NCBI GenBank assembly: GCA_023213395.1
Contig: CM041465.1
Span: forward strand, 56,737,741 to 56,801,740
DNA length: 64,000 bases
Direction: 5' to 3'
Source of the DNA: Cycas panzhihuaensis
Lineage: Eukaryota > Plantae > Cycadophyta
Shown: positions 2,089 through 54,316 of the stretch, piece after piece
How positions within the stretch are numbered: position 1 is the first letter of the stretch
How the letters are laid out: the number at the start of each line of letters is the position of its first letter
Notes under the pieces: generated by a model
Database searches by the model: none
The model's input: only the letters and a program-made list of their open reading frames with translations
What the model was told of the DNA's origin: nothing
Program-made: the position numbers and the translations under genes

Positions 2089-3433
2089 AACCCCTATCCC
2101 AAACCCTTCTGATGCTCCTGTTGATAATTCTTTGCCTTATGAGCCCATTTTGGCCATTTAAGATTCGTCTCTCCATCCATTGACTGACAACAAGTGGTAC
2201 ATGGATATTGTGCGATACCTCACCGAGTAGTAGTATCATCCCAATATGAGTAACAAGGTTAGGTCATGCATTCGGGCTACTACCAGGCAGTATTTTCTCA
2301 TAGGAGAGGTATTTTAGAAGAGGTCCTTTGATGGGATCCTTCTCCACTACGTCAACCCCAACAAGGTGGGCCAAATACTTCACGAATGCTATAACAGCAT
2401 TTGTGGTGGTCATTTTGAGGGCCAATCTGTTGCCTAAAGGATCCTTCGTATGGGGTATTATTGGTTGTCCCTCTTTAAGGATGCCCACACCTATGCCCTG
2501 AGATGTTGTCGTTGTCAAAAGCATGCTAACATCATCCATTTACCTTCTGAGGCCTTACACCCCATCATATCTCCATGGCCCTTCTCCCAATGGGGATTAG
2601 ACCTCATTGGGGCCATAACCTCACCTTCCTCATCGCAACACAAGTTCATATTGATGGCAATGGAATACTTTACTCAATGGGCCGAAGCAGTCCCTCTATC
2701 CTCTACTTCTGGCAAAATGATAGCCACCTTCATCTACCATCACATCATTTTTTGATTCGAGGTCCCTGACATCTTGATCACAGACAACAGAACCCCCTTC
2801 TGTAATAAGGAAATGGACAAATTTTGTGAGAAATTTAAGATCTCTCACAAAACCTCCTCTCCTTATTACCCCTAAGATAATGGCCAAATAGAATCTTTTA
2901 ACAAAACCCTCATAAACATCCTGAAGAAAACTGTCACCCAATCTAAAAAAGATTGGCACCTTCAAATTCCTCTTGCCCTATGGGCATATTGCACATCTAT
3001 CTGCATAGGGATGGCCCCATTCTCCCTTGTGTATGGAACTGAGGTAGTCCTCCCATTGAAAGTTGAGATCCCTTCCTTGCGAGTTTCCCTTTGGGGTCTT
3101 ATTGATAAGGAGTCTTACTGCCAGGCCCATCTCCTAGATCTCGAAGCCCTGGACAAGAAACGCTTGATCACCTATCAAGTAAATCTCGCCTCTAAAGCTA
3201 GGGCATGAAAGACATATAACAAATGCCTTTTCCCCTGCCCTTTACATCCTGGGGACCATGTCCTCAAGTTGGAATATCTCCATGATCGTTTGTCCAAGTT
3301 CAGACCTAAATGGGTTGGTCCCTTCGTCATTCTCGAAAACCTTGATAATGGCGCTTACATGATCACAACCTTGGAGGGTCTTGAATTTAAGAAAGTTATC
3401 AACCATAAGTTCCTTAAGAAATTCTACGTGTGA
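2089..3433 (+). pseudogene. pol: Tat-A integrase (degenerate)
   Basis: ECYNSICGGHF, GYYWLSLFKDAH...RCCRCQKHAN, SPWPFSQWGLDLIG, EYFTQWAEAVPL, PFSLVYGTEVVLP and KWVGPF...KFLKKFYV*, typical of Athila/Tat integrases. Confidence 0.9.
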
Positions 3434-4199
3434 TTATCCTTACTCCCGGGTAAGCTAGGCATACCGATTCCCCTTTTCTCACTCTAAAATAAGCTTAAAC
3501 TACAACTCTAAGTGTGTCCTCATTCCCCTAAACCATAGGTGGAATGATGGTTTAGGGTGGCCTTCCTATCTCTGCATTTTCTCCTATGGCATCTTATGTT
3601 TCCCTCCTGAGGGAAACCTTTCCTCCTTGTTGGATATGTAGGTTTCTGTTGCTCCCGAGCTCGAAAACACACTGCAACTAGGATTGCATGTGCGAGTACC
3701 TGTACTCCTTCTTCATCGTCATTTCCTTTACAAATCTCGCTATGCCCCTTCGACAGACATGCATGGTCCTCCATCTCTTAGCCTCATACATGCCTATCAC
3801 CTACACTCATAGTGGTCATATGTGCTCGCTACGAGTATGGCCCTGCATGAAAGGAAGTGTAGGCATCACCCAAACGATCTAATAACAAAAGCCATATAAC
3901 AACCAACCAAAATCATCATGATCTATAGTCTCTTGTGCACCCATGCACCCATGTCCATATACACATAAATATATAAATAAATAAATAACAAATACAACAT
4001 CATACACCATCATAACATCATTACCATGGATCAAATGGGGTGCCAATAGGCCCCTATCTATATATATAAAGAATCATATCATACAAAACAATATGGTACA
4101 TCATCCTAAGGAAGCTGGAATCCTTGTAGGGAGGAGTACAATCATGTGGTAACATATGGTGACTCCATGAAGGTCCATTTCTTTCCTGATTAAAATTGA

Positions 4200-6614
4200 C
4201 CATGTACTGCTCCTTGGTGCCCCTGCTCTCAAGGGGTATTATCTCCTGGCTAGTGTGATCCCTCCCTAGGAGACCACATGCCTCCTAGGCTCCTCCTACA
4301 CCGCTGTGAGCTCCCAACCTCACTCCCCTCGTCTCGAGGCCTCCTCGAGGTCATCGTCATCGTGTGGGTCTGAGTCTTGCTCTGCGACGACCTCGCTACC
4401 ATCTACTCCACCAACTGATTGTATCACCCCTAGATACGATCCCTCTCTCCCTCCACTCCTCGGAGCCTCTCCTCTAACACAACTATCCTAATGTAGCTCT
4501 CTGCATCGTCGCCTGCTGCTCCTCCACCCTAAGCCTCCAACGCATGTACTCAACCTTGTAAGGCATCCCTCTTCACGCGAATCCCATCCAACTCTCCTTG
4601 TAGTTGTCCTACCATCACCTAGTACTCTTGGGATTCTACCAACCTATGTCTGTGGTTCTGATTAGTGGGGCGAATGCCACTGTATGCGTCCCTGCTAATC
4701 AAGGCTCCTCCCTAGCCTGGATGGGAGGTTGCCCCTTCGCGTAGACCTGGGGGAATACCTCCTGGACTATTACCTCTATCAATCTCACCATCTCTGCTGC
4801 TCCTTCCAAGTCAAATATATCACGTGTTAGTATCCCCAAAAATAAATCAAAGCAAACTGTATAAGTACCTATTGGTCAAAAGATGATAGGAAGAGGTAGT
4901 GTCTCACTTCCTAAGATAATTGGCTCCTCGACTCAGACGACCACCTCCTCATCGGGACCTCCCTCGGTCATTCGTACCTCCTCCTCAACCTCGGGTACCA
5001 CCTCGCCTACTGCCTGGCCTACTAGGGCATCTCCTCCTCCCTCTGTCGCTGCCACTACTAGAGCTCTACCTACCACCCTCAATCTCTGCACTGGTGTGCG
5101 GGGTGGCCTACCTCCTCCTGCAGCTCCCAAAGGACCTGCCTCTCATCCTATATCCCTTGATGGACTAGCCACTCCTGATGGGCCTGCCCCGTCGCCTCCA
5201 TAATCACCTTCATCATCACCTCCATCTCCAGGACCACCTCCTAACCCTCCTACCTTGTCGTCGCTATCCCACCTCACTCCTCTATATGGGTTCACCGTGT
5301 AGTCTACCAGAGTGAGGAGGTCTAGCGATGTCACCTCTACTGACTGCCTAACATGTGCCTGATCCTTAGTCCCTCTAAACCGAGTCTGCCACTTGTATAC
5401 CATGGGCACTCTCGCTGAGATAGGGTGAGGTCCTCCTAGTGGTGCCACCACCCCAAAATGATAAAAAAGTAAATGATGTAGTAAGGTGTAATAGGAGAAT
5501 CCTCCTCTCCCTGCCACCCTGATAGCATCTAACTGGGCAACCATGTTTGCTGCTATCAGGGCGGCCCAATCTAGTCTCTCCATGGCCTCACATCTCATGA
5601 TCGTGTCCATCCATCTGCCTGGAATGTCTCTATAATTCTGTTTCTGGGAAATCTAGAACAGAATGGCCATTGTGATAAGTTTCCTTAACCGAGGAATCTG
5701 TGACATCACCATTGTCTCGACTGATATCCCCCACCTGTCCCACCTATCTTAACTAGTGAAGAATATAGGTGCCTCCCTGTGTGTAGTATCGGTGTTAGGT
5801 AGTGTCCCTAAAGATGTTGGTGCTCCTCCTATTGGTACACCCAAGATCCTCCTGATGTCTCCTAGCATGGTAGTAACGTCCCCCACTTGAGAAAGGTGGA
5901 AGACATACCGCCTGTAATCCCAATAGGTGACTATATCCACTAGGAGGCATTGATCCGACACATACTGGGGGGTCCTGATAATCTTCAGCAATCCACATCA
6001 CTCCAATATCCATCTATCCCCCTGTGTCATCATCTTTATGAAACTCATCATAGCAACTCTTATGTTTTCACAATTGTCCACTGCAATAACTGCCTTTAAA
6101 AACCACCCGAAAGTCAGTCACATCAATCCACACTATGTCTAGTTGCTCCTAGGATGCCCCTCATCTCACTCAAATGCGTCTGGCACCCTTTTGGGCCTAC
6201 TTTCCCTCTTTTTTCTCACTTTACACCTCTACCCTATGTTAAACTCTATGGTATCGCAGAGTTTGACATGGGCCTCACTGAGATTTCAGTATTTTCTCAA
6301 TGGCCCCGCGGTACACTCTGCGGCACCGCGATATTTGCCGCAGGGCCCTTCTTCCCCCCCATAAGAGGGGGGATGTCCAAAAACCCCAAAAAGTTTTATC
6401 TAGGTGGGCCAAAGCTACGCTGATTAGGACTAGGGTTGCCTAATGCCCTAGTCCTCCCACTCTTTAGACCCAAATCAGGCTCTATAGGGTCCTAAATTTC
6501 CCTTAAGGGGCCTGAAACTACTCTAAAAAAACTTAAAAACATATTAAATTAAATTGACGAAATGGAATAGTTAGGGGTTGATCCACTGACTGGATCCATC
6601 TTAGCTACTGCCAT
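4200..6614 (-). pseudogene. Tat-A antisense spliced PMD (Plant Mobile Domain, PF10536-like) gene; exons 6614-6591, 6093-4908, 4802-~4200
   Basis: LLVDIVTYWDYRRYVFHLSQVGDVTTMLGDIRRILGVPIGG and RLDWAALIAANMVAQL resemble the PMD motifs (W...HTFHLP.GE.TITL.DV..ILGLP..G; W...LA.LY..L). The GT-AG introns restore the frame. The 3' end is approximate. Confidence 0.75.
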
Positions 6615-7352
6615 CTCATTGCCCTAGTCTCGTTGGCTATCTCTACTCTTTGATCCAATGGTCAGATCTCTTGATGTGTGCCTCTGAAGTCAAGCGGTGC
6701 TCCACTGCATAAGGGAAAGGGCTCTAGATCAATTGTGAGCCCGTGAAAATGAACTTCATTTTCACCTTGTTTCCCTCATATAGGCAGAGGCCCCGATGAG
6801 AACTTTCTCCTTTCCTTCCTCCATGATAGCCCCTACAACTACTTTTTCTCCCATATCATTTTTGCCTTCTGGGTCTGTCCCTTGTTTCGCCTCTGTGGCC
6901 TCCTTTTTTTACCTTCCTAGTGCATTTATAATGACCCCTTCAGTCTTTTGCAAACCCCTTCTACCTCCATTTTCACACCACTCCAAAACATACCCATGTT
7001 TATACTCCTTTGGCTCATTTCACTGCCTTGGATCTGTTTTTGCTATTCGTTCGAGCCTTTGGAGTTCCCAAAAGAAGCACCTTCCCTATTTGAGGCCTCG
7101 CCTTAGTCCCTTTTAATGGCCTTTGGGACCTCGGAGGGGCCCTTTTGCCGTTGTTTCCTTCCCTTCTGTCGGGTTGGTCTCCTTGTCCCTGGGTAGCCTC
7201 CCTTTAGGGCTCTCCTATCCTTCACGATCCCTATTCATAGCCTTCCGAGTGCTTTGTAGCCCTATCGCTACCTCTCATACTTTTCTTTGCTCATCAACCT
7301 TGTCATCGCTTTTCTCCTTCTACCATCTAACCGAGACCCTCATCACCTTACC

Positions 7353-7775
7353 ATGGCATTGCTCATCTTTACCGATGGGGGAAGCTGTGGAAACCTAGGC
7401 CCTTCTTCCACTACGTGGATCCTTAGTGACCCCTCCGGATATGATTATATACATTCTGGAGTCTTCCTTCTTGAAGTTACCAATAACAAAGCTGAGTACA
7501 CAGCCGTTATCGAAGCCCTTACCGATGCACTCTATTTTCACTGCAAACCCCTCAATCTTCTTTGTGACTCTCAGGTCATTGTGTCACACCTTACCTAGGT
7601 TTACCAAGTACGTTGCCCATGCCTGAGAGCCCTCACCTTGATTTCTAGGTCCCTTTTATCTCATTTCTCTTCTGTAGATATCCGACATATTTCTGGGGAC
7701 CACAATGCTGAGGCGGATGACCTCATCTGTCTCATCCTTGAGCGTCGTCTCCCTCTCCTCGATAACCCCCCTTGA
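7353..7775 (+). pseudogene. Tat-A free-standing archaeal-type RNase HI (aRH), 140 codons, one internal TAG
   Basis: ACCATGG start. MALLIFTDGGSCGNLGP...TNNKAEY...CDSQVIV...HISGDHNAEADDL, with the D/E/D/D catalytic set present. Confidence 0.85.
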
Positions 7776-8260
7776 GGAACTTGTCTGGTCATTCAGGTGC
7801 CCAGGTTTTGGGCCATTCCATCTTCCATATTACGATCCGTTCATACCTCTGAAAGCTGGCCACTAATGAGGTTAAACTATGGTGACCATCAAGTTTGTTC
7901 TCTTCACTCTACCTTTCGTACCACTCCCGGTACAGAGTTCCAATTATTTTGATTCCCCTATGTAAATAGCATCCCATTCATAGCATTTGTTCGATCGTGT
8001 TGGTGACTATCATTGTTATTTATCTTGTACTTATGTGATGGGGGCATCCCCCTCATTTGCTTTCACCACCAGTCGACTTTAGGGTGACACATAGGCAACC
8101 CCTATACTGCCACTCTCTCATCTCCCTATCCACATGTCCCGACACGACACTCATCGTCACCCTTAGTTGATGACATTGTTGTATTTATTATATATTACTA
8201 GCATTTTATTGCTAGCATTTGCCATCACGTTATGCTTCTGAGTAATGAGGCTCTGTTGCC

Positions 8261-8270
8261 AAGGGGGCAG
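8261..8270 (+). other. Polypurine tract of Tat-A
   Basis: AAGGGGGCAG directly before the LTR-initial TG. Equivalent tracts lie at 19347-19356 and 43836-43845 (-). Confidence 0.8.
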
Positions 8271-11200
8271 TGTTTCTTGGCAATGGACATGGGCAAGTTG
8301 ACTTAGGTAAGTTTAGGTATGTTGTTATCCCTTACCTTTATCAGTTCTAGAGAATGTAGATTGAGGTACTTTACCTGCATTGCATGATGATTAATTGACT
8401 GCATGATCAGTACAACATTGTTGGACCATATTGCATCCCAACACTTTTCAGCCTATAATGATCTAGGGATACATATCCCATGGCACTCCACAAACCTCCT
8501 CCATGTCTCCACGACATCCCAGAGTACTGCTTGGCCTCCGTAGCCCATATCACATCACTTGTTGGTGTGACATAACCCCTGGCACCTCGCTTAGGCCTGG
8601 TTGTTGCCTTGCACCTACTTCTTATATCTCTTTTAAGAATCTTTTATCATCATTGCTTACTTGTTGTGGCCCCTTTAAGTCCCATAACCCCTTTTTACCA
8701 CTTGGATATAATAGCATACCTCCTTAGGCCTAAGTTTCCCTTTTTTGGAGCTTCTGAGTTCCCCTTTCTCTCCTTTTACTTTGTTTTTACCGTGCCGTGT
8801 TAAACTTCGTGGTACTACTGCAAACTTTGTGGTACTACTAAGTTTACCATAGGGTGACTATCCACGGTCATTTTTTAAGTTTGCCATGGCTAATTTCACA
8901 TTTATTATGAAATTACCATATGGCAGTAACTTGTTTCTTACCTAAGTTGAACCCTAATTACTCGATTGAGCTAGGGTTGGGTTTAAAAACCCAAAAACCA
9001 CCTCATTTTAGCTTTCTTTCTTAGCGATCTCCTCTAAAAATTCCCTATAGACAGCATCAAGTTTTGCTAGACCTGATTCTCAGCCAGTTGCCAGCCTCCT
9101 ACAGCTCAAGACACGTGTGTTGTAGGTCTACAATGTGGCCAACCAAGGGAAGATCTTACTTCAAATGCTCCACCAATCTTTAGGCATCCTTCTTGCTCTA
9201 ATTTTATCTCTATTTGCTGCACTATTGGGGTCTTCTCCTACAAACCCTAAAGGGGCTACTTCTTCACCTAGTTTCACTAGTAAATCTACCTCAAAATTGC
9301 CCATAACAAGTACCCTCAATTTAGTCTCTTACTTTCCTTTCTTTGAGCAATATAAATACTTTTCACCAGTATCTTTTTTGCAACAAGTTTCTTCTTTTCT
9401 TTCCATTGCAAAGGGAGGTAAACCCTCCCTTTTTCTTGGCATGTCTTCTTCTCCACTTGGTTCCTTTCTGGGTTCTTCAAGGAGGCAGCAAGGAAGAGGT
9501 TCCCATGGAGAGCAAAAGGAGTCATAGGCAAGGTCCTATACCTAATGTGCCTTCTCCTCAAGGTCAACCCCCTTCTCTCCTTACCTCTCCTTCTCCATAC
9601 CTCCCTTAGATCACTGTTGGCAGTAGCGTAGGAAGCCCCCTTGCTACATCTGCAACTAACACAGCATATCCTACATGGTTAGGGTTTCACCCCCACTCCA
9701 TACCCCCCTTGCCTCTTGATTCAATCCTTACAAAAATCTGCAAAAGTTGCACTTTGTAACTTTTGCAATATCAACAATATTAGTAGCATTTCTTGCCAAC
9801 TTTGCTTATATTTTTGGAAACTTGTTTGCATTTTCTTACCCTTTCATCTTGGTACTCAGGGGCAATGTGGAGCACCTTTGATTTGGAGGGTTAGACATTT
9901 TAAGGCTAACCACCCTTCCTCTTTCTCTTCCCCCCTTTTCCCATATCATACGTTAAACAACATATGAAACACAAGGAGTAATATTGATATTGGATGCATT
10001 TCTTTCAACAGAGACAATCGTATCTTGTTACTTTCCATATCGTATACTCATCCTGCATATGTTTGGTGCCCCTTGGGAAAGGGTGAACCTTGTTGGTTAA
10101 AGTTTTCTTTTACATTTGGAGGAAAAGAAGATTGCGTCCTAAGTACGTTCCTCCCTCTTTCGATAGTTATTTTTCTTTGCTCTAAAAAATTGTAAGGTAA
10201 AGTTGCATTAGTCTTTACGTTTCCCTTCCTCGCATTTCCTTTTTCTTTTCAGTTTCAGGGAAGGTAAGGAAGCCCCCCCTTTCTTCGTCAGCACTCCTTC
10301 TGTTATGCTATCTGTGGCAAGGAGAAGGACAAGGATTGTTGGTGTAGTGAGGGTAGCAGTACTTCGGCCATCACATTCTGGGTACATCTCTCTCTTCCTA
10401 GCCTTCTTTTCCGTACTCTTTTTCCCCCTTTCGAGTACCCCTTAGGCAAAATGAAAGAAAAGGATTGGTATGGTCTTTTGCACTTTGCTTATTTGTTTTA
10501 TGTTTGCTCATTTTAAGCTCATATAGTAGAAGACCTAGGCACTTGCTTGCACATACCTCTATCATCTTGTTACATGTCACTATGCAGCTTTGCATCCCTT
10601 GCATGAGCTTTGTGCCACGTAGCAATCTCCTTAATTCTATTTTTTCATTCAAAAGTATAAAGAGAGTGAGGTTGCATATAGTAAAAGAGAGGGAGAGATT
10701 TGCATTACTTTCTTTCTTTGAAAATTAATTTCTCTTAAACATAAATGCAACATTCCCATAAACACTACACTCTCACTTTGTATCTCTCTACCATACACGA
10801 AACAAAGACAAACACAAGACAACCCCCTTTGTCAACCTGCCATACCTAGAATCCTCCTTAGGTTTGGCACTTTGAGAGAACCACCTCTCAAGGTCATTTG
10901 CTCCCTTTTGACTTTGTTCCCCTAAGCTAGACCTCCCAAGTTTGGTCTTTAGGTCGACGCTTAGCTTGTGAAACTAGCCACCATCTTGACTACTCCTATT
11001 CTAAGCCACTTAGGCTTACGCGTGTGTCTTCCCCTCTTCTTACTAAGGATCATTCCTTTCATAACCCCCTTCACAAGGGGAGCTATTCCCTCGCCTCTTT
11101 CCTCCCTCCTTCAGCCATCCAAGGATGGGAAGGCTCCCTTTTGAGGTTACTTGGGAAACCGAGGAGATCACTTGTCCATCCACTACTCCATATCGAGGGA

Positions 11201-11399: not shown

Positions 11400-14300
11400 T
11401 TCATTTCAGGTCCTAGCCTGAGGCTTCTTCCATTGAAGAGCCTATTCCTCTTCTCGAGTCACATGTTGTTACTCTTATTTCTTGTATGACTTCCCCTCTC
11501 ACTTCATCTTCCACCTCATCACCTTCCTCGAGTGGTGAGGCAAGAGAACCTCCTGTCGCTTGTCATAAGAGATTACCCTCTAACTCTTCTGAAGAGTCCT
11601 TTGACTATATCGAGTGGTAGGTCAATCACTATGGTCCCACTACTCCTCCTACTCCTCATTCCTCATCCTCTCTGAGTATAACTATCCATGGGGTAGAATG
11701 CTTCGAGAATGATGAGGCCTTATTAGAGCATCTAGTGGGCTCTATGCCCAACCTGCCTCTTGGTCACCATAAACTTGGTTACCAAAAGATTTTAGCCCTT
11801 GGATCACCCTTAACTAACCCAAGTCTACCTAATTCCTCTTCTCCCCTTCCTATTGACCAAGCCCCCCTTTATTTTAAGGAAGGGAATGCCATGTTCATGG
11901 GGGCAACCAAGGACATCATCCTTACTCTTGTCAAAGTCATCAAGGTGGGAGCAGAGTATTTCCCTGAAGAAATAAAGGAATACACCCTTCTTTTTCAGGA
12001 GTTCCATGATGTTTTCACATGGGATTACACTGACATGAAGGGGATAGACCCTTCCATTGTCACCCATAATCTTACTACTATTACTACCCTTCCATACCCC
12101 CTCCATCCTAAACTACCTGCCACCATGAAGATGGAAGTTAAGAAACTCTTAGACGTAGGGTTGATCACCTCCATCGATTACCCCAAGATGGTCTCAAACA
12201 TCATTTCCGTTGCTAAAAAGAACAGAATGATCTGGATATGTGTTGATTTCCATGATATTAACAATGCATGTCCCAAAGACAACTTCCTTCTACCTTTCAT
12301 CGATCGAACCACTGGATTTGAAGTCATGTCCTTAATAGACAGCTTCTCTATGTATAACTAGATCCAGATCTCTCCTAAAGACCATTACAAAATAACCTTC
12401 ACCACTCCTTGGGGTACCTTCGCTTACAAAGCGATGCCCTTTGGGCTAAAAAATGTAGGCATCACTTACTAAAGGATGATGCAATTCATCTTCCATGACC
12501 TCATAAATGAAACCCTTGAGGTCTTCATAGATGACATGATGGGCCTTTCACATAAAAGGACCTAGTATCTTGATGATTTATGCGCAATCTTTACTAGGTA
12601 TCACAAATATTATGTTAGCTTGAATCCTCTTAAATATGTGTTTGTTGTAACAGCCGACAAACTTCTTGGTTTCCTTGTTTTAAAACAAGGAATCCAGATT
12701 AACCCCAATAAAGTCAAGGCCAACCTTGACATGCCTCCTCCTAAGACTCAATGACAAATCAAGTTGTTCTTGGGTAGGTTGGGTTTCCTCAATCATTTCT
12801 TGGCAAACTTTGCCATAAATGCTAAACCCCTCACTAACTTATTGAAGAAGAGGGTCCCATTTGTTTAGTCTCCAAGGACCCATGAAGCTTTCCAAGAGCT
12901 CAAAAGAGCCTTAGCTTCTGCCCCGATCTTGGCATCTCCCCTCTTCAATTGACCTTTTATCCTTTACACATCAGCTACTAATGAATCCTTAGGGGCTATG
13001 CTTGCCCAAGAGAATGATTCAGGAACTGAGAGGGCTATCTATTTCATCAGTTATACCTTAGTTACTGCTGAGCTTAACTATTCCCCTGCCGAGAAGGAAT
13101 GCCTCGCCTTAGTTCATACAACCAAGAAATTTAGGCATTACTTGCTCAGTAACACCACTCAAGTGATTGTCCAATCTGATCCCTTGAGATATCTCTTAAC
13201 CAAATCTGACTTGACTGGTAGGACTGGCAAGTGGGCCATCCTCCTTCAAGAATATGATCTCCAAATCATTAATAGGAAGTCAAAGAAGGGGATGGTGGTC
13301 ACCAAGCAGCTAAATGACGCCCCCATCCCTAATTCTTCAAACATTCCTATTGATGATTCCTTGCTGGACAAGCCTATCCTTTCTGTGTAAGACTTATTCC
13401 CCCTATCCATTGGCTGATAGTAAATGGTATGGGGATATTGTGTGATACCTTACTGAATAGCAGTATCATCCTAATGCTAGTAGTAAGGTAAGCTCATGTG
13501 TTAGGGCCATTACTAGGCAGTACTTCCTCATGGAGGAGGTGTTGTGCAAGAGATCCTTTGATGGGGTCCTCCTTTGTTACGTCAACCCTAATGAGGCAAA
13601 CCAAATACTTCGTAAATGCCACAATGACATTTGTGGAGGCCACTTTAGGGGCCAATCCATGGCCTAGAGGATCCTTCACATGGGTTAGTATTGGCCATCT
13701 CTTTTTAAGGACGTCCATGCCTATGCTTTGTGATGTCGTAGGTGTTAAGAACACGCCAATGTCATCCATTTGCCTTTTGAGGCCCTACATCCTATTATCT
13801 CTCTATGGTCTTTTTTCCCAATGGGGATTAGACCTCATCGAGGCAATAACCCGTCCTTCTTCATTGCAATACAATTTTATCTTAACTACAATAAAGTATT
13901 TCACTAAATGGGCCGAAGCGGTCCCCTTGTCTTCCACTTCTGGTAAGACTATAACTACCTTCATCTACTAATATATTATCTGTCAATTTGGGGTTCCTAA
14001 TATCTTGATCACAGATAATGGTACTCCCTTTTGTAATAAGGAAATTGACGAGCTTATCAGAAGTTTAGGATATCCCACAAAACTTCTTCTCCTTATAACA
14101 TCTCAGGCCAATGGCCAAATCAAGTCCTTCAATAAGACTCTTATAAACATCAACCTCGAAGCTTTAGACAAGAGACGCTTGATCGCATATTAAGTGAATT
14201 TCACCTCTAAAATTAGGGCACAAAGAATGTATGATAAGCATCTTCACCCTTTCCCTTTTCATCCTAGGGACCATGTCCTCAAACTAGAATATCTCCACAA

Positions 14301-14448
14301 TCGCTTGTCTAAATTTAGGTCTAAATGGGTTGGTCCCTTTATCATTCTCGACAATCTTGACAATGGCACCTATAGGATTGCAACTCTAGAGGGTCTCAAG
14401 TTTGAAAAAGCCATCAATGGTAAATTCTTAAAGAAATTCTATGTGTGA
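11400..14448 (+). pseudogene. pol: Tat-B pol: RT, RNase H, integrase (degenerate; ~220 bp deletion in INT near 14150)
   Basis: EFHDVFTWDYTDMKGIDPSIVTH, WICVDFHDINNACPKDNFLLPFID, MPFGLKN, EVFIDDMM, AELNYSPAEKECLALV...FRHYLL, WAILLQEYDL, FSQWGLDLI and KWVGPF...KKFYV*. Confidence 0.92.
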
Positions 14449-15249
14449 CTTTCCCTAGTCCCAAGTAGATTAAGCACACTCCTTTTTCCCTCTTGCTCTG
14501 AAATGAGCCTAAATTACCCCTCTAAGCATGTCCCCATTCCCCCTAACTATAGGTAGGATGGCAGCTTAGAGTGGTCTCTTCTTCATGGTTTTGTTGGTTG
14601 CATATCATCCTTTGTTTCCCTCCCGAGGGAAACCTCTCCCCTCCTAGTTGGATGTGTAAACTTCCTTCACTCCTGAGCCTAGAATCACACCCCAACTAGG
14701 GCCTCTTGCTTGAGTATCTATACTCCCCCTTTGTCATTATTTCCTTTGCATATTTGTTTTGCTTCCTCAGTGGACATGCATAGCTCCCCCTCTCCTAGCC
14801 TCATACGTACCCATCATTGATATGCATGGTAGTCATGTATGCCCGTTGTGAGTGTTGTGTTGCATGAAAGGAAATACGAGTGTCATCTACACATGATTTA
14901 ACAACAAACACCATATATAATAATCAACTAAAACTACCATAATGCATAATCTCTCATGCACCCGTGCACCTATATCCGCATGCATCTATCTCTCCATGCA
15001 TATATATAAACAAATAAACAATACAACAACATCATAAAATCATCACAATACCATCATCATGGAATAAATGGGGTACCAATTGGCCCCCATCTATATATAC
15101 ACAAATCATACCATACAAGGTCATATAGTACATCATCTAGGCATCATGCCTTAGGAAGCTGGAATGCTTGCAGGGAGGAGTATAATCATGTGTCTACATA
15201 TGGTGAAACTCCCTGGACGTCCAATGCTTTCTTGCCCAAAACTAATAAT

Positions 15250-17724
15250 ACATCAAAACTCCTTGATACCCTACCCTTAGGGGGTATCATATCCTCGTCT
15301 GTGAGATCCTATGCCAGGAGACCACATGCCTCCTAGGCTCCTCTGACGTCACTGTGAGCTCCTTGCCTCACTCTCCTTATCTTGAGGCCTCCTCTAGGTC
15401 ATTGTTGTCGTATATGTGTGAGATCTGCTCTGCGATGACCTAGTGGCAATCTGCTCTACCAGCTGATCATATCTCACCCAGATACGATCCCTCTCCCCCT
15501 CTGCTCCTTGGAGCCTCTCCTTTAGCACGATGATCCTGATCTAACTCCCCACATCTCCGCTTGTTGCTCCTCCTTCTTAGGACTCTAATTCCTGGACTTG
15601 GCCTTGTAGGGCATCCCTCTCTGTAGCTATCTAGTCTATCTCTATGCAAAGTCCATCTAGCACACCCTGCAATTGTCCCATCCTTGCCTAATGCCCCTAG
15701 GACTCTATCGCCCACATGTCCCTATTATGATCAATAGGTTGAATATCGTTGTGTGTGTCCCTGCAAATCGAGGCTCCTCGCTAACTAGGATAGGAGGTTG
15801 TCCCTTTGCGTAGACCTGGGGAAATAACTCCCAGACTACTACCTCTAGTAGTCTTGTCATCTCTGTTATGCCTGCTAAACCATGCATACCACGTGTCAGT
15901 CTAATATATATATGTATGAAAGCATCTAAATCAAATCAAAGTAAATTATCTAAGTAACTAGTGATAAAAAAGACATCAAGTTAGGGTAGTGTCTCACCTC
16001 CTAGGATAGTTGGCCCCTCGACTATAATGATCACCTCCTCTACAGGAGGTCTCTCAGTTACTGCCTCAGCCTCCTCTGCCTCTAGCACTATCTCCTTTAC
16101 CTCATGGCATGTTGGAGCACCTCCTGCCTCTACTCCTCCCTCCGTTGTAGCTACTGCCACCTTTGATGCTACCACCATAGCCATGGTAGCTGTTGGAGCT
16201 CTACCCACAACTCTCTCTCTGCCTACAGGCGTATGTGGTGTCCTGCCTCTCCTTTCAGGTAACGATGAGCCTGCCTCACCTCCTGCAACTCCTGATGGGC
16301 CTGCCCCATCGCCTCCATCATCACTTCCACCCTCATTGGGCTCATCTCCTAGCTCCCCTGCTATGTTGTCACTCTTCTAGTGTACCCCTCTATATGGATC
16401 CATCGTGCAATCTACTATAGTGAGTAAATCAAGTGGCGTAGCCTCCACTGACCTCTGTACGTGAGCCTAGTCCTCTATCCCTCCAAACCAAGTCTACCAT
16501 CTATGGACCATAGGCGCCTGCACTGAGATGGGATGTGGTCCTCCTGATGGTGCCACCGCTCTGAAGTGGTCGAAGAACAAGCACTATAATAATGTGCAGT
16601 AGGAGAATCCTCCTCTCCTGCTATCCAAATCTAATCTAGTTATGCCACCAGGTTGGTTAGTATCAAGACAACCCAATCTAGCCTCTCCCTGACCTTACAC
16701 CTCCTGACTATGGCCAACCATCTACCCGATATGTCTCTATAATTCTGTTGCCATGAAATTTGAAATAGAATAGCCAATGTGATAAGTTTCCTCACTCAAG
16801 GAACTCTGGACATCACCATCACCTAGATCGACACACCTAATCATTCCCACCTTCCCTGTCTTGTAAAGAATGTGGCTGCCTCTGTGTGGGCTGCGTCTGT
16901 GCTAAGCAACGTGTCTAATGATGATGGTGTTCCTCCTACCAATACACCCAAAATCCTCCTAACATCGCCTAGTGTGATAGTAATGTCCCCTATCTAGGGA
17001 AGATGGAAAACATGCCTCCGTCGATCCCACTGGGAGATAATATCTACCAGGAGGCACTGGTCTAATGCATATTGGGGCGTCCTAATGATATTTAGGAGCC
17101 TACAATGACTTAGAGTCATCCTATCTCACCTCAACATCATCTCAATGAAGCTGAGCATGGCCATCCTGATATTCTTGCACTTATCCATTGTGATAACTGC
17201 CTACAAACAATCTAGAAGTCAGTCCATAACTCCTCACCTACATGTCATGTTGCCTCTTCGATGCCTCGTGCTCCATCAGAGTAAGCTAAGTCATCCATCG
17301 GGCCTTATTTATTCTTTTTTCCATTATGCATTCTCTGCCCTACTTCAAACTCTATGTTATTGCAGACTTTGACACGAGCCCCACTGAGAATTTCTCGTCT
17401 TCTCAGCAGCCCCGCCACAAATTTCATAATACCATGATCTTTGTCGTGGAGCCATTGTAATCCCCCCTAAAAGGGGGCGGGGGGGGGCTAAAAAACTCTA
17501 AAAACTTACCTGAGTGGTCCAAGGCCTGGCCCATTGGGATCAGGGCTACCTAATACCCTAGTCTTCCCCCTCCCAAGGCCTCATTTGAGCTCTAAGTGGT
17601 CCTGATTTGCCCTTAAGGGGCTAAAACTAAGCCAAAAGACTACAAAAAATCCATGAACTTGAAGTAACGAAATGAAAGGGATAAGGAATGATCCACTTAA
17701 TAGATCGAGTCTGGCTAACACCAT
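15250..17724 (-). pseudogene. Tat-B antisense spliced PMD gene; exons 17724-17701, 17200-15998, 15871-~15250
   Basis: LLVDIISQWDRRRHVFHLP...DITITLGDVRRILGVLVGG. Same exon structure as Tat-A. The intron-1 donor is mutated (TTAAGT). Confidence 0.75.
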
Positions 17725-18441
17725 TTCATCATCCTGATCTTGTAGGCTATCTCCTCACCTTGATCCAATGGTCGAATCTCCCATAAAGTGCTCCCGAAAT
17801 TTAGCAAGGCTCTGTTACGTAGAGCAAAGGGCTCTAGATCGATCGTGGGGCCTATGAAAATGAATTCCATTTTCACCCCCCTTCCTTTGTATATGAGAGG
17901 CTCATGGGGTACACTTCCTCCTTTTCCTTTGTTGTGATAGCCTTCAAGACCATCTTCTTGGCCTTGCCACTTTTGTCTTCAAGGTCCATCCCCTGTTTAC
18001 TTCCATAGCTTCCGTTCTGACCTCTTTTGGCGCATTTATGATGACCCCTTTTATCTCATTTTTTATGTTGCTTCAAAACATACCCATGTTTATACTCCTT
18101 TGACTTGTTTTGGCATCTTAGATCTATTTTTGTCACCTATTCAAACCTTTGAGGCTCCCAAGGGAAGCACTTCCCTCTTTCTGGACCTCCTTTGGCCCTT
18201 TTCACTGACCTTTGGGAGCCCCAAAGGGGCTTTTTCGCTATCGCCTCCCCACCTCTTCATCGAGTTGGTTTCTTCAAGCCTAGTAGCCTCTTCTCAAGAC
18301 TCTCCTATCCTTTTATGGTCTATATTCATAGCATTTGGAGTGATTATAGCCTCATCGCTACATCTTGTCCCTTTCTTCACATTTTGACCTTATCGTCACT
18401 ATGTCACTTACCGTTCAATACAGAACCTATTTTGTTTCACC

Positions 18442-18864
18442 ATGGTACTACTTATCTTCACTGATGGAGGAATTCGTGGTAATCTAGGACCTTCTATCGC
18501 CACATGGATCCTTCATGACCCCTCTGGATATGACTATATGCGTTCTAGAGTCTTTCTCCCTAAGGCCACAAATAACGAAGCTGAATACACAGCTATTATC
18601 GAGGCCCTTACCAATGCACTTCACTTCTACCATGGTCCCATCATCCTCCTTTGTGACTCTTAGATCATCATATTGCAACTTACCTAGATTTACCATGTGC
18701 GCTACCCACATTTGACAACCCTCGCTTCGACCACCAGATCTCTCCTATCTCATTTCTCCTCCATGGATATTCAACATATTCCTTGAGACTTAAGTGTTAA
18801 GGTAGATGGCCTTGTCCGTCGCATCCTCGAGCATCGTCTCTCCCTTCTTGACGATCCTCCCTAG
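18442..18864 (+). pseudogene. Tat-B free-standing aRH, 140 codons with internal stops
   Basis: ACCATGG start. MVLLIFTDGGIRGNLGP...ATNNEAEY...CDS. Same length as the Tat-A copy. Confidence 0.85.
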
Positions 18865-19356
18865 ATAGCCTAGTGGGCTACCTAATCACCCATATTTCAG
18901 GATTGTCCTGTCCTTCATTTTACGATTCATTCGTACCTCTGAAAACTGGCCACTAATGAGGTTAAACTATGGTGACCATCAGGTTTTTTTCTTTACCTTG
19001 CCCTTCATACCACTTATGGTATGAGGCCCTTGCATTATAGTCTCCACATGTATAAAGTTCTCATTCATGTTATCTTATTGATTACACTCACGACTATTAG
19101 CATCACTTGTCTTGCATAGGTGCGATAGGGGCACCCCCCTCATCTACCCTCTCTTTCATCAAATTCTAGGGTGACGCATAGGCAACCCCTATGTCATCTC
19201 ATTTCTGTCCTTGTCCACACGTTCTGCCACGATGCCTGCCACTCCCTTGGATGATGACACTTCTATACTTTGATGCACAATACTAACCTTTATGTTGACA
19301 GCATTCGCCATCACTTTACGCTTTCGAGCAGCAAGGCTCTACTGCCAAGGGGACAG

Positions 19357-22300
19357 TGTTTCTCAGCTCCTGGGAATGGACATGGATGCCATCTCTCAGG
19401 TAAGCACAGGTACATGTCTAGCCTTATCTTTCATTAACTTTAGAATGTAATTGAATGCTCATTAGACTTGTTCTGCATGCTATTGCTTGACTGCATGATT
19501 GTTATGCTTAGCTTGCCTACCTACTTATGCTTGCACCTACTACTTTAGCCTATGACGACTCGGGACAAACATCCCATGGCACCACATGGCTCTCCACCAT
19601 GCCTCCACAACATCTTCAAGTACTCTCAGCTCTCGCAACTTGCTTTTTTAGCATAATATGATCCCTAATGACCCATTTAGGCATGATCACTCTCCTCACT
19701 TGCCACTTGTCTCTCATTAGGGCCTAGTTACCACCTTTTTCTTTCTTATCATGGTCCCACTAATATCTAAAGTCTCTTAGATGCCCTAACAACCCACTAT
19801 TTTGCTCTTTTAGGGCCTAGGATCCCTTTTTTGGGAACCTTCTAGGTTCCCCTTTATTTTTCTGCCTTGTTTTGAGTGCATCGCGACACTATTTGCGGTA
19901 CCACGACAAACTCTATGGTATCGCGAAGTTTGGTGCGATGCAACTATCTACTTATAATTTTTGGCCTGGCAATGGCTAGTTTTGCATTAGTTACAAAATT
20001 AACACGTGGCATTGGGTTGTTTCCCACCTAGGCTGAGCCCTAATCGCTCAATAGGTTAGGGTTGGGTATAGAAACCTAATTTTTAGCTCATTCTCTTCTT
20101 CTTGGCTCACTTTTGGGGAAAAAAAAAAGCTCTCCTTCAACTGCCTCCTGCTTTCCACTCTTGCCTCTTCCATCCTTAAGGAAAAAACCCTAAGCTACAA
20201 GCCTATAGAAGTCTTATCCAGACAAGTCCTCCTCTCAAGTACTCCTTCAAGTCATTTGCATCAAGTTTTCTTTGTAGGTTTCACTCCTCTCTCGCGCCAT
20301 TGAGGGGATCTCTCGTCCATCCTTCAAAGGAGACCCTCTTCTCCCAACCACCTTATGAGGTGAAAACTATTTCAAATTAGTGTTAGTAGGGATTTTTAGG
20401 CCTATGTTTTATTGTCTCTTTCTTTTGGCAATGGCATTTTTTGTATATTATTCTGGTTTTTTATATAAACCCCCTCCATACACTTCTCCTTCGGAAAGAA
20501 AACCCTTCCTCCTCTCGACTTACTCCCTTCATGCCTTGAGGTTTCTCCTGAGTTTCCACTAAGAAGGTTGAGGGAAAATATTATAGAATAGGGAGAAAGG
20601 AGTTTGAGGTTAGGGTTTCGACCCTCTTGGCCATCTCCTCTAGGGCAGCCCCTTATCCTTTGCAACTTTTCTTGCCCTATACCTATCTTGCACACCCAGA
20701 AACCTTAAGGGAAGGGATTCCACTAGTTGTAGCATTAGTAGCTACTTGCATCACTAGCAACCAACCCTCATATGCCACTAAAATCTAAATTTTTTAGCAG
20801 GTCTTTGTAGTTTGTAAATTCCTAGCCTTATCTTACAAATCTTGCAAAAGTTGCATATTGCAACTGTTGCAACATTTATAGCTTTTTCATTTTTTTCAAC
20901 TTTTATTATTCACAAACTATCACTTTTCCTATTGCTTGGAAGCCATAACTTCTTTCTTGACACACTAGTTTAGAACACTTGGGTATGTGGAGGTGCCTTA
21001 CTTAGAGAGCTAGCCATTCTGAGGCTATCTTTCTCTCCCTTTCTACCCCCCTTTCTCCCATGGTTGTTTGAGCAATTCGCATGTATATAAAGCAAAGTTT
21101 AAACTACACATTGTGTTTATTTAAAAGAGCATTTATATAAGATTACACTCTTCTCTTTTAGCAACCATACACATACATATATGAATGCATATTTGCTCTC
21201 ATGTATATCTAACACCTGTGGAAGGGAAAACGAACTTATTGTGCAGGTCTTATTTTTTTTAGAGTAAGCAAGGATTATCATGGAAGGTATAGATATTTCT
21301 TTTATTTTTATTACTTTAATTTGAACTTTCTTTTTTTATTGCAACTCTTTTCTTTTGGTTTCTTTATGCACTAGCTCTTGGGGAAGGTAAGGAAGCCCCG
21401 CCGGTATTTCTCTTACAACACCAACCGCGACAAGGAGCGCTAGGTGGGTGAAAGAAGATCATAAAGAAAGGAGAAAGGTTTGCTTCACCAGTCATCCTAG
21501 TCCCAGGTGTACCTTCTCATACCTTATCTTATTTCTCATCATTCTCCCCCTCTCCCAAAGGAAAAAAGAGAAAAGGAAAGGTTACACATACTTTTTTGCT
21601 TGCGGATTGCTTGATTTACACTCATTAGGGAAAGAAATAAACCCTTTGCACTTGTAGTTATTAACCTCACTAGTGAAATAGTATCCTACTTTTGTTGCAT
21701 TCCCATTCTCTTTTTTTGCATGACTCTTACATCTATTAGAGTAAGGGTACAAAGGGTTGCAATCTCTTCTATCACTACTTTTCTTTCCCATGCACTACCA
21801 AGGTAGTTTGCATTAATTGCTACTCTCTTTTATGCAATTTGTTGTCCTCTTAGTTCCTTTGCTTTTATTGTCATTCGTAAAAAAAAGAGAGAGATGCGAG
21901 AATCAAAAGAGGGTGTTATTATTCTTTTCCTTCTTCTTTTAATTTGTAATAAATCAGTAATAGCAACACTTTATACCATTGCACTACCTATCTAAAGCAA
22001 AACATAAACATACCACATAGTACTTTATTCACCTAGTTGCCTACCTAGTGCATTGAAATCTTAGGAGGACCCTCCTTTAAGTGCCCCTCTAATAAGGCCT
22101 CATCTTGTCTTACCCCCATTTAGGAGTTAGTCCTTCTACCCAACCTCCTCTTTGCATCTTCGTTATTTCGCTACTCCTTTCTTGTCCATAAGAACCCCCT
22201 TCTCCATTAGGGTCATCCTCCCTCTTTTCCCTCCTTCTTGGAAAAAGTGCCTTTTCATCTCATCTCTCCTTCATCTACTAGTCAGGATAGGAGAGTCCCT

Positions 22301-37639: not shown

Positions 37640-37840
37640 TATTAGAATATAATGTTTTATCCTAATAATATTAGAGAAAAGGGGCAATGTGCTTAAGACC
37701 CTCATTATATTTAATTCTTATGTTTAATGTTACAATTATGTAATGGTTACAAGTCTGTTGTATATAAAGGAGGTTTTTCTCCATCAATAGAGTGAGTCTA
37801 ATTCCATTCTTCCTCATAATTGAGGGTCTGATTTTCTACA
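37640..37840 (+). repeat. Copia-2 5' LTR
   Basis: Direct repeat of 42636-42836; ends TCTACA before the PBS. Confidence 0.95.
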
Positions 37841-38558
37841 TGGTATCAGAGCAGGGAAATCTACTTGACTAAAGAGAAATAGTCAAAGGGTTGTTGAAGA
37901 AAATTTTAATACTCGAAGCCAAAGATATATTCAAAGCATTGAAGATAAAGATCAAAGTCCAAAAGGTTGAAAGACTGCAAAAATTCCATTGTACAAAACT
38001 GTATGGATAGATTTTTGAAAGTTGTCAAAATTTGATGAAACTTGGCTAGATTAAATATCTCATCAAGGGCATCACTTTCTTCAATTATGACAAATTGATC
38101 CAAAGTTGTTTTGAGGTTGTTTTATCCCTCTGAGTAGCCCATGTGAATTTAGAGCTTCTAAAGCATATTTCTTTTAAATCTCATCAAATTGTTGATTAAT
38201 ACATGTTCCAAACTCATTGTCTATACCATACAAAGAGATTAAGTTCAATTTTGAAGGAGTTTTTCTCAAATTTAAAGTTTTTGAGCATTTCTTCAAAAAC
38301 CCTAGCCATCAATTTTGACCTTTTGGGCCAATTTTCTCCCAAACTAGAAACGGCCTTAAAAATCTAACTGCAGATCTAAACTCAGCTTGAAATTCTTTTT
38401 TATTTGACATACTCATCTCTTAAATCTATACACCTTGATTTTTGAATAGAAATCTGTACAATCATATGATCTGGCACTAATTACAGGCTTTAAAACCTTT
38501 GATATTTATACTTTTGAATATGTTAGTTTTCTTAAATCTACCCTCAACTCAATTCACC

Positions 38559-41500: not shown

Positions 41501-42628
41501 GGACAAGAACACATGGTATGTAAACTCAAAAAGGCGTTGTATGGTTTGAAATAAGCCCCTAGGGCATGCTACGCTAGACTAGACTAGTATCTATCTCAAA
41601 ATGGCTTCCAAAGGAGTAACTCTGATTTAAGTCTCTACACAAAAAGAAATGATAGAACAATTTCAATTATAGTAGTCTATGTCGATGATATGATACTCAT
41701 TAGAGATGATACCATGTCTATCTCAGACATAAAAAGTCAGTTAGAAAAGGATCTTGAAATGACTGACTTGGGTCCTTTGAGCTACTATCTAGGAATGGAA
41801 ATTGAGAAAAATGAAAAGCATATTGCAATCTCAGAAGGCAATTATATCAGAGATTTGTTGACTAAGTTTCAAATGGAGAATTGCAATAAATGTGCAACCC
41901 CTATGGAAGTTAGCTGCAATCTAGTCCCAGAAGAAGGAGAGCCTTTAGCTAATTACACACTTTATAGACAGTTGATTGGAAGTCTTATTTACCTCACTGC
42001 CATAAGACCTGACATCTCACATTTAGTAGGTTTGGTTTCCAGATATATATAGGAGCCCAAGCTAAAACATTGGAAGGCTACAAAAAGAATACTTAGATAC
42101 TTTAAAAGGACAACAGATCTAAAACTAGTATATAACAAAGAAAAGATAACAAAATTGATTGGGTACTACAATTCTAATTGGGTGGGTTATAAGGATACTA
42201 GAAGATCCACTAGTAGATATTATTTCTTCCTTAGGTCAGCTGTCATTTCATGGTATAGTAAAAAGCAACCCATTGTTACACTTTCTTCAACTAAAGCAAA
42301 ATACAAATTAGTGATTAATGCAACTTGCGAAGCTTTCTGGCTTTGACAACTACTAAGAGATATGAACCAATTACAACAAGAACCAATGATGCTTCTCTAT
42401 GATAATCAAAGCACAATTAAGCTAGATAAAAATCTCGTCTTACATGCATAAACAAAGCACATAGAAGTACACCATCACTTTATTCGGGAAGAGGTGAAAA
42501 ATAAAGACATCGATCTAACACATTGACCAACAACGAATCAAGTTGTAGATATATTAACAAAATCCTTTAAGAGAGAGAAGTTTAAAACTCTCAGAGAAAG
42601 ATTAGGTTTAGAAAAGATAAAACATTAA
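38559..42628 (+). pseudogene. pol: Copia-2 gag-pol (gag, PR, INT, RT, RH), many stops and frameshifts
   Basis: KLTGNNYNIWRIKMEDLL, WFIDSGASKHMT, LELIHIDLCGP, KCIRSKNGGEY, YVDDMIL, MTDLGPLSYYLGMEI, YRQLIGSLIYLT, ISWYSKKQ and TKHIEVHHHFIRE. Confidence 0.93.
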
Positions 42629-42635
42629 GAGAGGA

Positions 42636-42836
42636 CGTTAGAATATGATGTTTTATCCTAAGAACATTAGAGAAAGGGGAAAATGTGTTTAAGACCCTAA
42701 TTATATTTAATTCTTATGTTTAATATTATAATCATGTAACGGTTACATGTCTACTATATATAAAAGAGGTTTCTCTCCATCAATAGAGTGAGTCTAATTC
42801 CATTCTTCCTCATAGTTGAGGGTTTGATTTTCTACA
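42636..42836 (+). repeat. Copia-2 3' LTR
   Basis: Follows the PPT; direct repeat of 37640-37840. Confidence 0.95.
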
Positions 42837-42989
42837 AATCCTACCAAACCTAAGACACTTATCAGTATGAGGATCCATATCACGCTCAAGAGCCATATCA
42901 AGCTTACAGCCAAGATTGGACCTAAGGGTCTAATCTATATGGGCAATGAAAAGCTACAAAAATTTGGAGATAGTGGAATAACACTTTCT

Positions 42990-44841: not shown

Positions 44842-45270
44842 TTAGGCTAAAGAAGGGATGTTTGGTGGTGGTAAATGATGCTTAAGGATGAGATCCACTA
44901 ACCTATCCATTTTAGTGTTAAGTTCATGAGGAATATGGTGGATTAACATAAAAGAAAACTAGGCCAAAAGGGACCTAGTAAGAGTGGTTAAAGATCTCAG
45001 TTGTGAGCAATTAACCTATTAGACCTAAGTTAGCTAGGACATAATAAGTTAAGAGTCATAATATAGAATAATGGGGCCACTATGGAAATATATTACATCC
45101 ATTAAGGCCTCCATAATGGTAAGGTACTCGACCATGTCATTGGCAACAAAAAATATGTAGACTCTATATCGGATAAGGGTGTGCCCATGGTAATCTTGAA
45201 TGGTCCATGCTACAACAAGAGGCCCCAGATTTCCATGACTACCCCCATCGGTATGGATGATCAATGCCAT
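44842..45270 (-). pseudogene. Tat-C free-standing aRH
   Basis: CCCATGG start. MALIIHTDGGSHGNLGP...ANDMVEY...YDS. About 143 codons with stops. Confidence 0.8.
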
Positions 45271-46829: not shown

Positions 46830-49200
<2,371 letters not shown>

Positions 49201-49351
49201 GAGGGTGTGAGAGAACTTGTGTTTTTAAGAGTAAAGGAAAGTTGGACCTCTAGGGGTATAGAATTTATATATACCAAGGCCCCATTAGGTGATTATATAC
49301 TCTTGCAAGGATTCTAACTCCCCCATGACATGTTTTACTTATATCCATATT

Positions 49352-53985: not shown

Positions 53986-53993
53986 TTCTATGT

Positions 53994-54230: not shown

Positions 54231-54316
<86 letters not shown>

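Follow-up and report, generated by a model that had tools for sequence, protein, structure and literature searches.

The window analysed here comprises 64,000 nucleotides from the cycad Cycas panzhihuaensis (GenBank assembly GCA_023213395.1, contig CM041465.1, positions 56,737,741 to 56,801,740 of the forward strand) and contains three decayed copies of a long terminal repeat (LTR) retrotransposon, designated A, B, and C, in which an intron-bearing antisense gene for a PMD-like protein and a stand-alone gene for an RNase H (aRH) lie downstream of the integrase and face apart. With slightly better than even confidence, we interpret them as the 3′ internal part of a Tat-clade Ty3/gypsy element of the TatIII type, preserved in three dead copies, whose two genes would have been expressed apart from gag-pol. 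Both genes evolved under purifying selection, which was of about the same strength in the aRH as in the PMD-like gene.

Three element copies with a common gene order

The window is plant DNA crowded with decayed LTR retrotransposons. Self-comparison revealed that A (2091-8994, plus strand) and B (13320-20079, plus strand) align end to end at 68-74% identity, and that C is a third relative on the minus strand, in which the reverse transcriptase (RT)-integrase region (59020-55989) is 66-73% identical to that of B. A local tblastn search with the PMD and aRH pieces of A matched exactly three places in the window, namely A, B, and C. In each of them, the integrase is followed by the antisense PMD-like gene, a spacer, the aRH open reading frame (ORF), a conserved motif, and the LTR. 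A and C can be aligned solely in the two genes and in the motif before the LTR, the spacers no longer being alignable. Under the three-exon model of the antisense gene presented below, the two ATGs face apart at a distance of 739 bp in A, 718 bp in B, and 1560 bp in C. A preliminary description of this DNA had proposed three diverged copies with a shared order, two genes that are separate, face apart, and each have a start codon of their own, about 740 bp (A and B) or 1.56 kb (C) between the two ATGs, and a conserved motif before the LTR. The tblastn search and self-comparison confirmed the copies and their order, the end coordinates and distances were reproduced, both ATGs proved to be conserved in A, B, and C, and the motif is real (Table 1). 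Every copy is dead or broken. The 5′ part of A lies outside the homologous stretch, and its RT-RNase H region falls outside the window, as do the outer LTR ends of A and C.

Table 1. Coordinates of the features of copies A, B, and C in the 64,000-nucleotide window
Copy	Feature	Position	Strand	Remarks
A	Integrase part of pol	2091-3433	+	Pol stop 3431-3433; homology to B 13320-14445; Integrase_H2C2 and SH3_Tf2-1 matches
A	Spacer, pol stop to antisense stop	3437-4228		Non-coding; pseudo-dN/dS 0.51-0.84 in six frames
A	Antisense exon 3	4229-4802 (coding 4802-4232)	-	ELFPQVYAKGQPPI motif, charged helical part, tail; stop 4231-4229
A	Antisense intron 2	4803-4907	-	105 nt, phase 1; GTGAGA ... TACTAAC ... 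GGAAG
A	Antisense exon 2	4908-6093	-	PMD-like domain, then Gly/Asp/Glu-rich low-complexity stretch; one frame, 5 in-frame stops
A	Antisense intron 1	6094-6590	-	497 nt, phase 0; GTCAGT ... CTGAC ... TTTTTAAAG; pseudo-dN/dS 0.58-0.80
A	Antisense exon 1, coding	6591-6614	-	ATG 6614; 8 codons, MAVAKMDP
A	Divergent region	6615-7352		Predicted promoter region; CCAAT 6655-6659, TATA 6779-6782
A	aRH ORF	7353-7775	+	140 codons; ATG 7353, stop 7773-7775; one in-frame TAG, 7596-7598; RVT_3 46.6 bits
A	Conserved motif, internal-region/LTR border	7840-7899	+	95% identity to B; alignable in C
A	3′ LTR, approximate start	7886-8994	+	About 60% homology to B 19014-20079; start placed without an LTR pair
B	Native RNase H next to RT	12953-13387	+	RT_RNaseH E 1.3e-28; TSAT where relatives have TDAS
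B	Antisense gene	15277-17724	-	ATG 17724; exon 1 coding 17724-17701, intron 1 17700-17201, exon 2 17200-15998, intron 2 15997-15872, exon 3 15871-15277; stop 15279-15277
B	aRH ORF	18442-18864	+	ATG 18442, stop 18862-18864; 3 in-frame stops; RVT_3 54.7 bits
C	3′ LTR end and 5′ LTR end	42984-43589 and 63373-63999	-	76.9% identity over 636 columns
C	aRH ORF	44842-45270	-	ATG 45270, stop 44844-44842; 6 in-frame stops; RVT_3 22.0 bits
C	Antisense gene (element on minus strand)	46830-49202	+	ATG 46830; exon 1 coding 46830-46853, intron 1 46854-47325, exon 2 47326-48323, intron 2 48324-48536, exon 3 48537-49202; stop 49200-49202

Structure of the antisense PMD-like gene

In A, B, and C, the antisense gene is split by two introns into three coding exons, with 11 of 12 splice dinucleotides intact across the copies, in agreement with the splicing proposed in the preliminary description. 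An 8-codon start exon located about 470-500 nt upstream joins exon 2 in frame in each copy, and the same stop ends all three genes. Intron 1 begins at CCA/GTCAGT in A, TCG/GTGAGT in C, and CTA/TTAAGT in B, and ends at TTTTTAAAG/G in A, TTTGTAG/G in B, and TTTTTATAG/G in C, each acceptor following a CTGAC or TTAAC branch-like motif. Intron 2 is in phase 1 in all copies (105, 126, and 213 nt in A, B, and C, respectively) with the arrangement GT ... CTRAY ... AG; it is AT-rich, with a GC content of 0.35, 0.32, and 0.14 versus 0.43-0.58 in the flanking exons (0.52-0.58 in A), and carries in-frame stops in A and B. A (TA)59 microsatellite, 98% pure, occupies 48384-48502 in intron 2 of C, where the intron length stays a multiple of three and the frame is open. 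Protein similarity among the copies extends upstream of the ATG at 6051, up to the conserved 3′ splice site. An unspliced PMD ORF beginning at 6051, 1.3 kb from the aRH, was also considered and is ruled out by the upstream acceptor and the 8-codon exon 1 in all three copies.

Exon 2, read as the broken gene with X at the stops, matches the Pfam PMD profile (PF10536) with 30.7-32.3 bits (E 2e-7 to 8e-8, profile positions 5-246 of 347), which is under the gathering cut-off of 34.9 bits, and is therefore designated PMD-like; two of the five pieces searched match at E <= 0.01. In the ESM Atlas, the PMD part gave a weak lead (0.88) to a cluster with PMD in 36% of its members. A word-based protein search with the PMD read-through, whole or as residues 1-295, returned no match, and a metagenome scan with a 169-aa PMD ORF yielded 594 pattern matches, none of which was confirmed. 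Exon 3 of all copies has, besides a charged helical stretch, a conserved ELFPQVYAKGQPPI-like motif. In A, this exon is interrupted by at least 8 stops and a frameshift, and the whole gene by at least 13 stops and one frameshift; the piece from 4809 to 4645 aligns to 48530-48694 of C. The AlphaFold2 model of the exon 3 tail of B (single sequence, with X at 5 stops) has three helices and a mean predicted local distance difference test (pLDDT) score of 59.5, which is too weak for a coiled coil to be assigned. By analogy with the host proteins MAIN/MAIL1, host chromatin or transcription would be the target of the PMD-like protein.

The stretch downstream of the antisense stop is UGUA- and U-rich on the antisense strand, and such stretches are typical of plant poly(A) regions. 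The region 3437-4228 of A is predicted to be the 3′ untranslated and poly(A) region of the antisense gene. Directly downstream of the antisense stop, an island at 3975-4199 is 81% identical between A and B, compared with 60-70% elsewhere, making it the best conserved non-coding stretch between these copies; a related stretch follows the antisense stop in C. This island may be a 3′ end signal of the antisense gene or a cis element of the sense RNA.

The stand-alone RNase H gene

The aRH ORF comprises 138-140 codons in the three copies and starts in each of them with CCATGG, six codons ahead of the DGG motif that contains the first catalytic Asp. Read through with X at the stops, all three exceed the cut-off of 21.6 bits for RVT_3/RNase_H (PF13456/PF00075). 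Thus, of the two domain assignments put forward in the preliminary description, that of the RNase H is borne out by its profile, whereas that of PMD stays below the cut-off. Residues 3-132 of the aRH of A align with the solved 140-aa RNase H chains 3u3g and 4h8k (E 4e-16), and D8, E48, D72, and D122 match the acidic catalytic positions of 3u3g. With a profile match above the cut-off and these D-E-D-D residues, the aRH of A would be a type 1 archaeal-like RNase H. It resembles the archaeal-type RNase HI proteins (3u3g, 4h8k, 4e19, and 3hst) in its catalytic acidic residues and, with regard to 3u3g and 4h8k, in its length, but differs from these solved proteins in being located inside a retrotransposon, with 1-6 stops in the copies. 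The in-frame stretch upstream of the aRH is pyrimidine-rich and without coding signal.

A HMMER search against 1.84 billion representatives found 5456 matches at E <= 0.001 and none at E <= 1e-30. Among the best 150 of these matches, most are 26-44% identical to the aRH, and the four looked-up ones with informative names are ribonuclease HI family proteins. The two most identical of the 150 are short predicted proteins: P0023 (73 aa, 63% identical) starts at the Met of the aRH, and P0021 (115 aa, 57% identical) contains this Met internally. P0014, also among the 150, is an intact stand-alone relative of 142 aa with 44% identity. These three look like the same element type. A word-based protein search with the N-terminal part of the aRH gave one match, a 136-aa RNase HI-like protein, and the ESM Atlas placed this part among RVT_3/RNase_H clusters (0.96).

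The native RNase H next to the RT in B and C reads TSAT in comparison with TDAS of chain 8r0s, and the first catalytic Asp is gone; the FIDD motif of the RT is retained in both copies. Tether-like degeneration of the native RNase H has been published for aRH-bearing Tat elements (PMC10508981, PMC5348765; these and the following papers are cited from the accessible parts of their texts). Since the native enzyme lacks the first catalytic Asp, the aRH would supply the RNase H needed for reverse transcription, likely acting in trans, and is probably the working RNase H of the element. The preliminary description had regarded this gene as an accessory nuclease for RNA:DNA hybrids; its identity as an RNase H stands, but an optional role is improbable given the loss of the first Asp in the native enzyme of B and C. 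The aRH would thus be a core enzyme that moved to its own cistron.

The same in-frame TAG occurs at aRH codon 82 in all three copies (7596-7598 in A, 18685-18687 in B). It is the only premature stop common to A and B in 771 codons, covering the aRH, antisense exon 2, and two integrase stretches, and the ORF behind it still has a ratio of nonsynonymous to synonymous substitution rates (dN/dS) of 0.22. A sequencing run with the same species label (run X1; contigs only, kind guessed, with no bearing on transcription) covers the first letter of this TAG, where two contigs of related copies (depth 16.3 of 32.4) have a sense codon and the rest retain the stop. Decay that recurred at a single hot site seems likelier than programmed read-through of the shared TAG. 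Decay of methylated cytosine was not supported as the source of the stops, since only 5 of 24 unshared stops are single C>T or G>A changes relative to the codon of the other copy. The pieces found in run X1 indicate that related copies are abundant. Its summed contig depth is 590-1090 over 7487-7537 and 7691-7775, the two most conserved segments of the aRH, versus 3-30 elsewhere in the ORF, and aRH-bearing elements of many families seem very abundant in the organism of this run.

Purifying selection on both genes

The dN/dS was calculated by the Nei-Gojobori method between A and B from one nucleotide alignment, with two shifted frames as controls. This ratio, which the preliminary description had named as a test of its proposal, is far below 1 in both genes. 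Antisense exon 2 gave 0.22 (0.16 in the domain part; shifted frames 0.66 and 1.11), and the exon 3 part 4618-4232 gave 0.26 (shifted 0.62 and 0.86). The whole aRH gave 0.21, with 0.20 in the N-terminal half (shifted 0.72 and 1.37) and 0.22 in the C-terminal half (shifted 0.64 and 0.99). The integrase was at 0.06-0.07, with 0.85-1.92 in the shifted frames (for the value of 0.06, shifted 1.29 and 1.51). Introns, spacer, divergent region, and LTR served as non-coding controls and ranged from 0.46 to 0.84 in every frame; because the divergent region has a pseudo-dN/dS of 0.46-0.63 whichever of the six frames is read, it is regarded as non-coding. Between A and C, the N-terminal part of the PMD-like domain gave 0.17 (shifted 0.65 and 1.40); synonymous sites were saturated in the other A-C and B-C comparisons. 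The low dN/dS and the conservation imply that the copies diverged mostly as members of living lineages to which both genes were of importance, and decayed later.

Proposed expression from the region between the start codons

The antisense gene is unable to use the 5′ LTR promoter. Its first coding exon is located inside the internal region, and an internal promoter within the 0.7-1.6 kb that separates the ATGs would likely drive its transcription. All three copies share a TATA core about 165 nt ahead of the antisense ATG; on the sense strand of each element, the core reads CATATAGG (A), GTATATGA (B), and CATATAAC (C). Between it and this ATG, A and B have the same CCAAT block, GATCCAATGGTC, of which 10 of 12 positions match in C. 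On the sense side, a 40-bp block at 6980-7019, ACTCCAAAACATACCCATGTTTATACTCCTTTGGCTCATT, is 88% identical between A and B, can be aligned in part to C, and, with a TTTATAC motif about 350 nt upstream of the aRH ATG, is a candidate element of a sense promoter. The aRH would likely be translated from its own CCATGG on a sub-genomic mRNA, for which a start in the same divergent region is favoured, if only slightly; such a start would fit a bidirectional promoter and the shortness of the region. A shared bidirectional promoter between the ATGs, as inferred in the preliminary description, is plausible from the short conserved CCAAT and TATA motifs.

Among specialists, it is unsettled whether the post-integrase aRH of gymnosperm Tat elements belongs to pol or forms an ORF of its own, and how it could function in the latter case (PMC10508981, PMC13468544). 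The antisense gene of 1.8-2.4 kb between integrase and aRH, the conserved aRH start in a strong context, and the selection on the gene together favour a separate cistron. A more specific proposal, which we consider doubtful as a whole, is that the only competent RNase H has moved from pol to a 140-codon mini-gene, and that this gene and the intron-bearing antisense PMD gene share one internal divergent promoter. If this is true, the element runs three transcription units (LTR, antisense, and internal sense). The antisense introns would persist through retrotransposition, since the genomic RNA carries them in the opposite orientation and they are thus never spliced from it.

Several points weigh against our interpretation of a TatIII-type element with two separately expressed genes. 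The gene models are read-throughs of broken frames with no intact copy, and the intron 1 donor of B has TT instead of GT. The PMD score is sub-threshold. The assignment to the gymnosperm TatIII/post-integrase kind rests on domain content and order. Run X1 provided 139 and 30 short pieces, mostly less than 90% alike, in short contigs only. The CCAAT and TATA motifs are short, and their conservation may have other causes. In B and C, further ATGs lie less than 130 nt upstream of the aRH start. Ustyantsev et al. in 2015 placed the aRNH of lineage III at the very C-terminus of the putative Pol, after the integrase (PMC4408406). Finally, an aligned AG after a long pyrimidine-rich tract, 19 nt (A and B) or 33 nt (C) before the aRH ATG, fits a 3′ splice site in all three copies; C reads TTTATTTAG.

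This AG would be the acceptor if the aRH were expressed from an LTR-driven mRNA spliced from the 5′ leader, or from a site after pol, in which case the internal promoter would serve the antisense gene only and would not be bidirectional. We regard this as possible though not probable. In A and B, the pol stop is followed by a GT (GTAAGC and GTAGAT, respectively), and the literature reports spliced sub-genomic RNAs of env-class plant elements as well as a spliced intron in Ogre (PMC11963269, PMC4408406). However, the triplet at the acceptor of A is GAG, which makes a weak 3′ site (CAG in B and TAG in C at the aligned position); a conserved donor is not definable, and the GT of C is shifted by 4 nt.

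A splice that removes the whole antisense region and joins the integrase to the aRH in frame, leaving the aRH as a C-terminal domain of Pol as in the 2015 placement, appears highly unlikely. In each copy, the frame from the candidate acceptor to the aRH ATG is open, but the only GT upstream of the pol stop (GTGTGA in A and B) is in phase 0 versus phase 1 of the acceptor and is deleted in C, and a compatible conserved donor was not found in the copies. The conserved CCATGG and the intervening 3.9 kb with the antisense gene argue for a separate cistron, and Biryukov and Ustyantsev in 2023 call the aRH a separate ORF (PMC10508981). The least probable explanation, that the cassette is functionless passenger DNA consisting of captured host or transposon fragments in old copies, would suit the broken state of all three copies and the frequent heterogeneity of extra ORFs (eORFs) in plant LTR elements (PMC6317226), but conflicts with the outcome of the selection tests (only the true frames gave dN/dS of 0.16-0.26, in copies differing by 30-60%) and with the conservation of starts, splice sites, and order where the spacers no longer align.

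Relation to published elements

Lineage III of Ustyantsev et al. (2015) corresponds to TatIII of Neumann et al. (2019) and REXdb, and to the Tat H/I structure #3, "post-integrase", of Biryukov and Ustyantsev (2023) and PMC13468544. Ustyantsev et al. described a PMD eORF that gymnosperm elements of lineage III carry in antisense at their 3′ end, as the first eORF in the history of Tat (PMC4408406). Neumann et al. (2019) list 39 TatIII elements with a mean length of 14.7 kb, a post-integrase aRH in 92%, and a reverse-oriented 3′ eORF (eORF-3′R) in 18% (PMC6317226). The term "post-integrase" is used in PMC13468544 (2026), which notes conflicting reports on whether the aRH is part of pol or a separate ORF. 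Other TatIII traits are a primer-binding site complementary to tRNA-Arg (64%) and a 5-bp target-site duplication, neither of which was assignable at the LTR ends of the copies. The copies in the window share with TatIII the aRH downstream of the integrase (3.9 kb downstream of the pol stop in A, at the same place in B and C), a reverse-oriented eORF in the 3′ part of all three copies, with its sub-threshold PMD match, and the degenerate native RNase H (B and C). C spans at least 21 kb including a nested element of 6 kb, and so measures about 15 kb, in comparison with 12.7-17.3 kb published for TatIII; its 5′ LTR runs off the window.

The combination of an antisense PMD eORF with an aRH after the integrase is already in print (PMC4408406, PMC6317226, PMC10508981), and the novelty that the preliminary description had suggested for it is not upheld. 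The present analysis adds detail to a known family without defining a new kind of system, and offers a better gene model than the published texts. In full-text literature searches and in the accessible parts of the texts on TatIII, a PMD gene between integrase and aRH was not found, although Fig. 2B of the 2015 paper and Fig. 2 of the 2023 paper may draw the order; introns in the PMD gene, a coiled-coil-like third exon, and a head-to-head pair were likewise not found there. The text of the 2015 supplementary figure files and of the cited figures says nothing on the element order, and the words PMD, ORF, and antisense do not occur in the 2023 supplement. The conserved introns give exact predicted junctions in A, 6591/6093 and 4908/4802, and their confirmation would provide a clear natural case of an intron-bearing antisense gene in a plant retroelement.

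Antisense genes between pol and the 3′ LTR are also present in other Tat-clade elements, Retand, Grande, and RIRE2 (TRP28 or gene23). In maize Grande, the antisense gene23 is reported to have its own promoter and a nuclear product, and antisense aORFs are known in Retand and RIRE2 (PMC7264820, PMC11963269); the word "intron" does not occur in the accessible review text on Retand/Grande-type antisense genes. Ogre/TatV elements carry eORFs with PMD and a coiled coil (PMD-CC), a combination reported for angiosperm lineages IV-V. Unlike the copies described here, Retand, Grande, RIRE2, and Ogre/TatV elements have the aRH inside pol, between the RNase H and the integrase, so that the antisense gene has no sense partner. 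The layout further resembles HBZ of human T-cell leukemia virus type 1 (HTLV-1) and other retroviral antisense genes, in that a spliced antisense coding gene, thought to be regulatory, is located in the 3′ part of an LTR retroelement. The resemblance is one of layout only, as HBZ and the PMD-like protein are unrelated, and HBZ transcripts start in the 3′ LTR (PMC7264820), whereas the first coding exon here lies in the internal region.

Other features of the window

The distance from the pol stop to the antisense stop is about 790 nt in A, and the two corresponding pieces of C sum to the same length around a nested 6-kb element (49345-55342), which lies between integrase and cassette and has LTRs that are 86% identical. 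ORFs of at least 70 aa in this nested element had no Pfam matches at E <= 0.001, and a clear target-site duplication was not seen around it. A canonical polypurine tract and the exact LTR start were not confirmed in the copies of the family.

B has no 5′ LTR of its own, and its internal region begins directly after the 3′ LTR of A, giving an internal-LTR-internal-LTR arrangement (LTRs at 7886-9000 and 19014-20115). As the LTR between A and B is only about 60% identical to the 3′ LTR of B, it is too diverged to be its own pair. This arrangement suggests that two different members of the family long ago recombined through their LTRs. Weak similarity also runs on beyond both LTR ends. Directly upstream of A, a chromovirus-type integrase with a chromodomain occupies 360-1780, and a Copia element with 90% identical LTRs and gag, integrase, and RVT_2 matches is located at 37642-42836.

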